From positions 1-64,000 of the IMG/VR virus record IMGVR_UViG_3300013121_000028: a DNA stretch of 64,000 nucleotides; one strand, written 5' to 3'. The translations under genes were made by a program, and so were the position numbers. Below, piece by piece: positions 8,413-10,108 of the stretch (its first letter is position 1; every line of letters begins with the position of its first letter). The DNA comes from a virus. Its lineage: Duplodnaviria > Caudoviricetes. Under the pieces are notes generated by a model. That model saw only the letters and a program-made list of their open reading frames with translations. It had not been told where the DNA came from and made no database searches.

Positions 8413-9423
8413 ATGGCAACACTAAATGCGGAACAAAAAAAGGTAAAGAAAGTAATTACCAAAAAAAGGATTGAAATTCAGGATGAAATTTCAACAGTAG
8501 ACAAATTAGGCGAGGAAACACTTGCTGTAATGCCTGAAGATATGGCAGTAATGTATGCAGGTAAGCTATGTGCTATGCTCATTAAAGGTAATGTCGCCTC
8601 ACAAAATATCCTTTCGGGGTACATGAGGCAATATCCTGAACTTGAAGAAAACACTAAAAATCAATTAGTTCAACTTCAGAAAGATTTTGCATCTGATTTT
8701 GAGTTAGCAAAGAACAGAACTAATAAAATTGCCTCAAAACATCCCCTTTATGAGCGTTTAAAAGGCATTAAGGGTATATCAGCTTACCAAGTTGCCTTAT
8801 TAATGTCCTATATCAAGGATATTGGTCGTTTTGACACCCCAAGTAGGCTATGTGTATATGCGGGAATGGCTTCGGTTAATGGTATGCCCGTAGTTAAGGC
8901 AAATATTAACAAAATAAACGATTGGAAGATGGAAACTCAAGGGAAAGAATTTCAGGGGTTCAATACTGAATTATCGGGTCGTATGTTTGTTATTATTGAT
9001 TGCCTTATTCGTTCAAAAGGATTCTTCTACAATTACTATTTGGGTATCAGAAAAAGATTGGAGGAAAGAGCTTTAAAAGGCGGTGAAACATTCATTGCCA
9101 CAGCCCAAGACCAAAAAGAAAGTAAAGGAGTAATGAAGGCGGGTAATGCCTATATGAAAGGTAAGAAAAATCAATCACTTATTATGTGGAGTGATAAAAA
9201 CGCAAAAAGGCGTGTGGCAAGAACCTTCCTACATATATTTTGGAAAGAGTGGAGAGAGTTATCAGGATTACCTGTTAGACATCCTTATGTTGTTGATTAT
9301 TTAAAACATACAGGATATGTAACTTTAGAAGAAATAGTTAAAGCAGATTCAGTAAAGCAGGTTAAAAAAAGAAAGTCTAAAGATACTGATACTTCCGATA
9401 CTGAAGATAATAGTAATGATTAA
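8413..9423 (+). CDS. IS110-related Nop-domain protein, TIGR-associated TasA-like (no nuclease domain)
   Basis: LKGIKGISAYQVALLMSYIKDIGRFDTPSRLCVYAG matches the IS110 Transposase_20/Nop RNA-binding domain; C-terminal AKRRVARTFLHIFWKEWRELSGLP..PY; no N-terminal DEDD RuvC or HNH visible; abuts a 36-nt array. Confidence 0.85.
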   Translation: MATLNAEQKKVKKVITKKRIEIQDEISTVDKLGEETLAVMPEDMAVMYAGKLCAMLIKGNVASQNILSGYMRQYPELEENTKNQLVQLQKDFASDFELAKNRTNKIASKHPLYERLKGIKGISAYQVALLMSYIKDIGRFDTPSRLCVYAGMASVNGMPVVKANINKINDWKMETQGKEFQGFNTELSGRMFVIIDCLIRSKGFFYNYYLGIRKRLEERALKGGETFIATAQDQKESKGVMKAGNAYMKGKKNQSLIMWSDKNAKRRVARTFLHIFWKEWRELSGLPVRHPYVVDYLKHTGYVTLEEIVKADSVKQVKKRKSKDTDTSDTEDNSND

Positions 9424-10108
9424 TTGAAAGCACTCTTGTTTATTTTATAAGTGTTTGAATTATTGCATTTGTTGTTTATGGTCATTTATTTTGAATTGTA
9501 GAATATTCTGTTTATGTTTTAAGTGTTTGAATTTATTTGATAATCGTTTATGGTAACAAGTTTTGAATTGCAAAAATCTTTTTTTATTAAGAGAATATTT
9601 GAATTGTGCGATACTTTGTTTATGGAACTAAATTTTGAATTGAAAGGCGTATTGTTTATTTCTTTCCTTTTTGAATTTGTGTTACGATAGTTTATAAGAA
9701 GCATTTTTGAATTGAGTGGGACTTTATTTATTCTTTTAAAATTTGAATTGAAGTTCAGATTATTTATGTAACTTATTTTTGAATTGGTAAATCCTTCGTT
9801 TATGGAAAAAATCTTTGAATTGGATAAATCTTTATTTATGACGGACTAATTTGAATTAGAACGAAATTTTTTTATTGCAAAGAAGTTTGAATCGGTAAAT
9901 TCATTGTTTATTAAATTTACTTTTGAATTATAATAAAGCTTATTTATATACAAAATGTTTGAATTGTGAGCTGAATTTTTTATGAAATTTTGTTTTGAAT
10001 TTAATTGTAGATTTTTTATGACAAAGTGTTTTGAATTGGAATAATAGTAGTTTATGGAGCAGTTTTTTGAATTACGTTAATTATTGTATATGTGAGCAAC
10101 TTTTGAAT
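9421..10108 (+). repeat. TIGR-like tandem guide array: 19 x 36-nt units, two alternating repeats and two 10-nt variable segments per unit
   Basis: GAAT of the TTTGAATT repeat occurs at 9457, 9493, 9529 ... 10105 (exact 36-nt period), plus a degenerate first unit at 9421; a second repeat TnnTTTAT (commonly TTGTTTAT) sits mid-unit. Confidence 0.92.

Follow-up and report, generated by a model that had tools for sequence, protein, structure and literature searches.

A probable phage-encoded dual-repeat TIGR-TasA system with variant anchor motifs

The tasA gene and the array downstream of it

The window analyzed here, a 64,000-nt stretch of the Caudoviricetes record IMGVR_UViG_3300013121_000028, contains a gene for a nuclease-less Tas protein, followed on the same strand by an array of two alternating short repeats and by a predicted terminator:

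8413–9423, + strand: tasA, encoding 336 aa with a coiled coil and a Nop-type RNA-binding domain, nuclease-less
9286–9309, + strand: codons Tyr292 to His299, spanning a predicted pre-tigRNA processing pair that needs no metal
9418–10110, + strand: dual-repeat TIGR array, 19 tigRNA units of 36 nt
9418–9426, + strand: first edge repeat, 5′-truncated (gatTAATTG), overlapping the tasA stop codon
10102–10110, + strand: last edge repeat, 3′-degenerate (TTTGAATAa)
10141–10182, + strand: predicted intrinsic terminator made of a GC-rich stem with a trailing U run (fold −17.3 kcal/mol, z = −3.2)

Units of the array are ordered as an edge repeat (UUUGAAUUg), 9-nt spacer A, a loop repeat (UUgUUUAUg), and 9-nt spacer B, which sum to 36 nt (9 + 9 + 9 + 9). 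Anchors of the TTTGAATT type recur at 9454 + 36k, with 18 of 18 spacings equal to 36, and the loop repeat block T-t-g-TTTAT lies exactly 18 nt out of phase with them; the positions between repeats are near-random. Across the two repeats, 8 of 18 positions are invariant and four further positions are T in 17 to 18 of the 19 units, with positions 1, 2, 8, and 9 being common to edge and loop repeats. The array holds 17 copies of TTTGAATT, of which the whole 102-kb genome has 40 (~10 expected per strand). Because the first repeat keeps its 3′ half and the last repeat its 5′ half, the edge repeat is TTTGAATTg and the loop repeat is TTgTTTATg. Truncated end repeats and a terminator mark the boundaries of TIGR arrays (PMC12045711, section 4), a rule that the window array fits, and the TAATTG start is also seen in three relatives (L011, L012, and L018). 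The terminator, predicted to close a tasA-array transcript, was missed by a simple pattern scan and found by direct RNA folding (its long interrupted stem may lie outside the rules of the scan); a hairpin and T run also follow the arrays of L006 and L018.

TIGR arrays, as described in the literature, consist of two alternating 8- to 12-nt repeats and 9-nt spacers, and TIGRFinder builds a half-unit from a 3-nt box C, a 9-nt spacer, and a 2-nt box D, with 4-nt gaps between them. The geometry of the window array is that of a canonical dual-repeat TIGR array, since the relaxed ninth base discussed below is counted within the repeat; the original prediction of an atypical array grammar thus fails with respect to geometry, where 9-nt repeats, 9-nt spacers, and 36-nt units are all canonical. 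The array resembles CRISPR arrays in being a set of repeats and spacers beside an effector gene on a mobile element, but it has two alternating 9-nt repeats with 9-nt spacers instead of one repeat of 25 to 36 nt, its guides are 9 + 9 nt, and there are no cas genes: none of the eight neighboring ORFs matched a Cas family. An Rfam search of the array returned no match.

The only Pfam match of TasA is a weak one to PF02371, the IS110 C-terminal domain (E = 1e-4). A profile of 36 TasA homologues matches TaTasR (9mty; E = 2.7e-15) and SpTasH (E = 3.5e-9), and the top 10 Foldseek hits of the AF2 model (pLDDT 86) are all TasH or TasR chains (9w04/9vzx/9w03 and 9mty) with a probability of 1.00; IS110-type recombinases rank after the Tas chains, with IS621 and ISCro4 below all. 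The modeled N terminus is all-helical, with residues 1 to 110 forming three helices; neither Pfam nor the model revealed an HNH or RuvC domain, and the alignment to SpTasH begins after the HNH region of the latter. A three-helix N terminus without HNH or RuvC identifies the protein as TasA. It was not found among GenBank phages or in IMG/VR. Scans of the phage's large ORFs yielded no useful classification.

IS110-family elements combine an N-terminal DEDD/RuvC-like transposase domain with a bridge RNA. An IS110-family RNA-guided recombinase was considered and rejected as the identity of the protein, the match being limited to the C-terminal PF02371 part and the Tas structures ranking higher.

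SpTasH (Salicola phage CGphi29; 9w03/9w04) and TaTasR (9mty), the best sequence and fold matches, are built from a coiled-coil dimer and a Nop domain; TasA keeps both the Tyr/His pair of the former and the Arg that reads the box-D uracil in the latter, but lacks HNH or RuvC and has larger wedge and C-terminal-domain insertions. The catalytic residues Y289 and H296 of SpTasH have their aligned counterparts in Tyr292 and His299, at the same 7-residue spacing. The SpTasH residues process pre-tigRNA (PMC13421893), and a Tyr/His pair is reported to mark dual-repeat systems (10.64898/2026.09.09.750476, section 10). All 16 locus-encoded proteins of the subclade to which the window TasA belongs keep the pair; in a wider alignment, Tyr is present in 84/89 and His in 86/89 subclade members, as against 87/94 and 84/94 for other Tas proteins.

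Related loci and the register of the repeats

We compared the locus with 18 related loci, whose Tas identity ranges from 96% down to ~30%. In 16 of the 18, tas is immediately followed by an array on its own strand (array-bearing relatives are L001 to L004, L006, L008 to L018, and L022), and spacers are 9 nt throughout. There is no array beside tas at L007, and the contig of L005 ends 43 nt past the gene. Repeats and unit lengths are as follows:

L001, L011, L012: edge TTTGAATTG, loop TTgTTTATg, unit 36 nt
L013: edge TTTGAATTG, loop TTTTATATg, unit 36 nt
L003: edge TtTGAATTG, loop TtGgTTATG, unit 36 or 35 nt
L004: edge TTTGAATTG, 6-nt loop TAAaTG, unit 33 nt
L006: edge TTTGAATTg, loop TTTTTATg, unit 35 nt
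L010: edge T.TGAATTG, loop TTTTTaATG, unit 35 or 36 nt
L008: edge TtTGAAGTg, loop TT..tTCTg, unit 35 nt
L015, L017: edge TTTGAATTg, loop TTGTTaCTg, unit 36 nt
L022: edge TTTGAAATG, 7-nt loop T(C/A)AACCG, unit 34 nt
L009: edge TTTGAAAt., loop TTgaTacag, unit 36 nt
L014: edge TTTGAATTA, loop TTG.TTATA, unit 36 nt

Several features of these loci are of interest in their own right. (i) Units shorter than 36 nt (33 nt at L004:4001–4430, 34 nt at L022:3560–3850, and 35 nt, with 8-nt loop repeats, in L006 and L008) fall outside the published description of 8- to 12-nt repeats and uniform 36-nt units. (ii) At L007 (3001–3933; 44% identity), no array occurs within a few hundred bases on either side, and the flanking genes run in the opposite direction; this could be a solo tas, or the array could reside elsewhere on the 80-kb contig. 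(iii) The contigs of L002, L004, L005, and L016 end in or just past the array, which indicates that assemblers break at these repeats; arrays of the subclade are probably under-represented in assemblies. (iv) A gene of the Acb2/Tad1 hairpin family (the anti-CBASS/anti-Thoeris sponge family) lies ~850 nt downstream of the L022 array (4371–4685) and hints at a counter-defence neighborhood. (v) A tRNA-like sequence (GGCTCC...GGTTCGAG-type T arm) stands right after the last unit of L014 (2775–2845).

The original prediction had described 8-nt repeats separated by 10-nt variable segments with a G-biased first base and had offered, as an alternative, a semi-conserved ninth repeat base before a 9-nt spacer. 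A recount returned the same frequencies of G after the repeat, 12/19 at edge repeats and 11/19 at loop repeats (the truncated first edge repeat being counted); with a G content of 0.17 in the spacers, 22 to 23 G of 38 is far above chance (p ~2e-8 for 22/38). In the window and in L018, whose Tas is 96% identical, the position is relaxed (G > U > A) and C is absent from it (0/38 in each array, 0/76 together). Elsewhere, G occupies it in 11/11 copies in L003 and L004, is near-invariant in L013, and accounts for 28/39 in L001 and 27/36 in L010, while L014 has A in edge and loop repeats alike. The occurrence of A/A in L014 and of G/G in most loci is the edge-loop covariation expected of a scaffold base that is read by a symmetric dimer. 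Were the spacers 10 nt long after all, with their first base biased toward G by target pairing or acquisition, the G frequency of just 50 to 60% in the window and L018 would be accounted for, and lengths of up to 12 nt are indeed allowed (PMC12045711, section 4); however, a base that is invariant or nearly so in L003, L004, and L013, replaced by A in both repeats of L014, and never C across the 76 positions of the window and L018 behaves as a protein-read part of the scaffold, and we regard 10-nt spacers as improbable. By this comparison of sequences, the relatives settle that the variable segments are to be read as 9-nt spacers and the G as a relaxed ninth repeat base. The repeats and G bias originally described were borne out, as was the ninth-base alternative (G fixed in relatives, A/A in L014), and the 10-nt segment length was not.

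Decay or inactivity of the array, with the ninth base relaxed through lost selection, is similarly unlikely. Such decay would agree with a ninth base less conserved in the window and L018 than in more distant relatives and with the failure to find targets in the phage's own genome or the related loci. Against it, conservation is near-perfect at the remaining repeat positions, the period holds exactly, tasA remains intact with its processing pair, and the ~27 guides of L018 are largely different, which points to active turnover and not to decay.

Guide content differs even between close relatives. The array of L018 (4468–5440) and that of the window (9418–10110) have tigRNAs 7 and 17 alone in common, at different ranks, and L001 and L012 have 7 guides in common, in non-collinear order. 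Comparisons of this kind suggest that guide units turn over and shuffle fast in arrays associated with near-identical Tas proteins.

Anchor motifs and candidate base-reading residues

The original prediction had described characterized tigRNAs as having ~9-nt spacers bracketed by CCA and UG boxes, boxes that the literature also describes (PMC12045711, section 8), and had noted that no CCA recurs in the window repeats. There is in fact no CCA on the + strand of the array, and its complement TGG occurs in nine copies, all at places where the first spacer base is by chance G, such that CCA on the − strand occupies no fixed repeat position. In place of a CCA/CCN box C and a UG/AG box D, the window repeats bear (U/A)Ug and UU, and a comparison of repeat sequences shows the same difference: all five published arrays compared read (U/A)G-NNNN-CC(A/N), as against UU...(U/A)UG in the window. 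Arrays at the 16 other loci of the subclade read U(U)...N(U)G or ...NUA; no C is conserved in the subclade, whose boxes follow the pattern U(U)-N(1-4)-N(U)G. Nor is there a fixed counterpart of the G2-C7 pair that joins box D to box C, the corresponding positions being U2-U7 in the edge repeats of the window and U2-A7 in 15/19 of its loop repeats. Because the founding paper already allows for divergence of these motifs (PMC12045711), the absence of the published box sequences marks a sequence variant and does not exclude the array from the TIGR systems. The unusual trait of the array is limited to its anchor motifs; it is otherwise a known TIGR system with variant boxes.

Among described systems, the closest in organization include FpTIGR-FpTasA of Flavonifractor plautii (Faure et al. 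2025, PMC12045711), which, like the window, pairs a nuclease-less Nop-domain Tas with a downstream array on the same strand, with two alternating 9-nt repeats, 9-nt spacers, a 36-nt unit, and a C-terminal ...Y......H motif. The last box-C base of FpTIGR is variable (CCN; legend to fig. S5 of the same paper), a precedent for the semi-conserved ninth base of the window. The Fp repeats are AG-NNNN-CCN, whereas those of the window are UU-UGAA-UUg and UU-gUUU-AUg and contain no C, and FpTasA is distant from the window TasA (profile scores go from 1e-34 to 1e-25 and to ~1e-18 beyond the subclade). The boxes of SpTasH and TaTasR, UG or AG with CCA, likewise differ from those of the window. Variant box-C motifs are known from the stem-loop TIGR arrays (PlTasA, PateTasR, and CsTasR), for which the portion of the TIGRFinder list consulted includes CUU, CGA, CUA, and CAA, all containing C; unlike these arrays, the window array has no palindromic stems and its units are contiguous and of fixed length. 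Stem-loop Tas proteins are without the Tyr/His loop (10.64898/2026.09.09.750476, section 10), which the window TasA keeps.

The inclusion of CAA in that list would suit an array transcribed from the − strand, whose motifs would be CA...(A/C)AA, and the truncated end repeats, being symmetric, do not fix the orientation. This orientation is nonetheless very improbable: 17 of 17 arrays lie directly downstream of tas on the tas strand, the strong + strand terminator stands right after the array (with similar hairpins and T runs at this place in L006 and L018), a − strand transcript would run antisense into tasA, and the + strand reading alone keeps a box-D uracil to match the conserved Arg139. That the repeats might be protein-binding iterons or a phased promoter-like repeat, as their AT-rich, TTTG-containing sequence and the TAnnTTTG-type boxes earlier noted in the genome could suggest, is very improbable, since the alternation of two repeats with 9-nt spacers of wholly different sequence is tied to a Tas homolog in 17 loci, shuffled sequence yielded more sites in a promoter-like scan than the actual sequence did, and Rfam offers no match.

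In a full-library profile search, the subclade comprises 55 clusters (50% identity) at E ≤ 1e-30, and scores drop from 1e-34 to 1e-25 at its edge and then to ~1e-18 among the remaining Tas proteins; by profile score, the TasA subclade is thus discrete. A single profile served to align 89 subclade members with 94 other Tas proteins, and residues were compared, chiefly at positions corresponding to box-C contacts, as assigned previously (10.64898/2026.08.11.744272). Position 270, which aligns with the box-C base contact K267 of SpTasH and K310 of PlTasA, is Arg in 82/89 subclade members versus Lys in 78/94 other Tas proteins. Position 267, outside the assigned contacts, is Arg in 84/89, with other Tas proteins having Lys (45), Arg (18), or Tyr (15) among the 94. 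Position 259, which aligns with PlTasA H299, a residue stacked on the last box-C base, is Trp, Phe, or Tyr in 88/89 versus His in 48/94. The window TasA accordingly has Arg270 for Lys and Trp259 for His relative to SpTasH and TaTasR at residues aligned with the box-C readers and the stacking residue. The aligned counterpart of its R139 in TaTasR is R198, which reads the box-D uracil, a base retained in the subclade. Residue 266 varies with the base at which box C of the loop repeat begins: A is accompanied by Arg in 10 loci, and C by Trp in L008, L015, L017, and the distant L022 and by Lys in L009; as few evolutionary events are involved, this tracking is a lead and not proof. We consider the substituted residues candidate base readers. 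The G-biased base is proposed to be the third base of a box-C-equivalent motif; stacking of that base on an aromatic or His side chain, as in the solved complexes, as opposed to strict reading, would explain why it is only semi-conserved.

Taken jointly, these traits may amount to an orthogonal code, a reading that we put forward tentatively and hold to be somewhat less likely than its alternatives: a base code that shares nothing with CCA/UG, with the G-C pair dropped and units of 33 to 36 nt, together with matching changes in the protein. Within this joint reading, the protein changes would be those at 270 (Arg in place of Lys), 267 (Arg), and 259 (an aromatic residue in place of His); Arg, Trp, or Lys at residue 266 would track A versus C at the first loop-repeat box-C base; and loop repeats of 6 to 9 nt would be tolerated across members. 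The literature text consulted contains no description of a UU/NUG code, of the loss of the G-C pair, or of the matching residue changes, and searches of Data S1 and part of Table S1 of PMC12045711 with peptide words, repeat words, and contig names did not recover the subclade. As to the divergent TIGR subfamily with its own RNA code that was originally predicted, the TIGR assignment and a subclade with variant boxes and residues are upheld, including a covariation of box positions between edge and loop repeats and subclade-specific substitutions at residues aligned with box-C contacts, and the atypical geometry is not.

TIGR-Tas systems are recently described, compact, and PAM-free RNA-guided DNA binders, so that their scaffold rules matter for array finding and for engineering. 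If true, the orthogonal-code reading would supply a TIGR scaffold that is orthogonal by nature, and in that case TIGRFinder and other motif-anchored finders may miss the subclade among the ~2/3 of tas loci that have no detected array; more generally, arrays in AT-rich phages may be under-called by such finders. If an array family can have UU and NUG boxes, complete retuning of the Nop domain would be possible, and the window array provides candidate specificity residues and suggests that nature contains orthogonal Tas-tigRNA pairs. The known mechanism is unchanged by the window array, and motif divergence had already been noted in the founding paper (PMC12045711).

Guides, targets, and a proposed mode of action

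The locus is very probably a phage-encoded dual-repeat TIGR-TasA system, with tasA and the array likely co-transcribed on the + strand up to the terminator. The steps proposed here are drawn from homologous systems and apply conditionally to the window. The precursor would be bound by a TasA dimer, with the edge repeat contacting one protomer and the loop repeat the other through the shared positions U1, U2, U8, and G/D9. The Tyr292/His299 pair would then cut inside each edge repeat, probably near UUUG^AAUUG, releasing a 36-nt tigRNA composed of 5′-AAUUG, spacer A (9 nt), UUGUUUAUG, spacer B (9 nt), and UUUG-3′. Each of its two 9-nt spacers would pair with one half of an 18-bp DNA site, the two 9-nt halves lying side by side on opposite strands. 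Because TasA is without a nuclease, the expected outcome is binding only, that is, RNA-guided DNA binding that most likely blocks transcription or replication of a host or rival-element target; DNA binding and transcription repression by TasA RNPs have been described (bioRxiv 10.64898/2026.09.09.750476, section 12). The array anatomy, the protein family and fold, the conservation of the processing pair, and the clade-wide logos are shown by the sequence and structure comparisons, and transcription, the cut site, DNA binding, repression, and the assignments of residues to bases at this locus are predicted from them and from the homologs. Weighing against this explanation are the lack of a target for the 19 guides in the phage genome or the related loci beyond the level of controls, the absence of the CCA and UG boxes, a G-C pair without a conserved equivalent, and a ninth base more relaxed in the window and L018 than in other relatives, which could mean early decay.

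Targets were sought in the published geometry of the Table S3 oligonucleotides, in which one strand bears spacer A and then spacer B in reverse complement. Near-matches of the 19 guides to the phage's own 102.5-kb genome were not above wrong-geometry controls, and matches of all guides of 14 arrays to the related loci and the genome likewise did not exceed controls. For the two guides shared with L018, exact 18-mer scans of IMG/VR returned 0 matches for guide 7 and, for guide 17, three matches in unrelated contexts, which is at chance level. One of the latter, at L020:4908–4925, lies within an HNH endonuclease gene, at its N-C-R-T-L-C motif; as a single match, the other two having unrelated flanks, it is taken to be a coincidence.

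The window phage itself carries genes of the GIY-YIG/HNH homing endonuclease type (PHROG matches) at 11799–12542 and 37438–38574, the first of which is ~1.6 kb downstream of the array.
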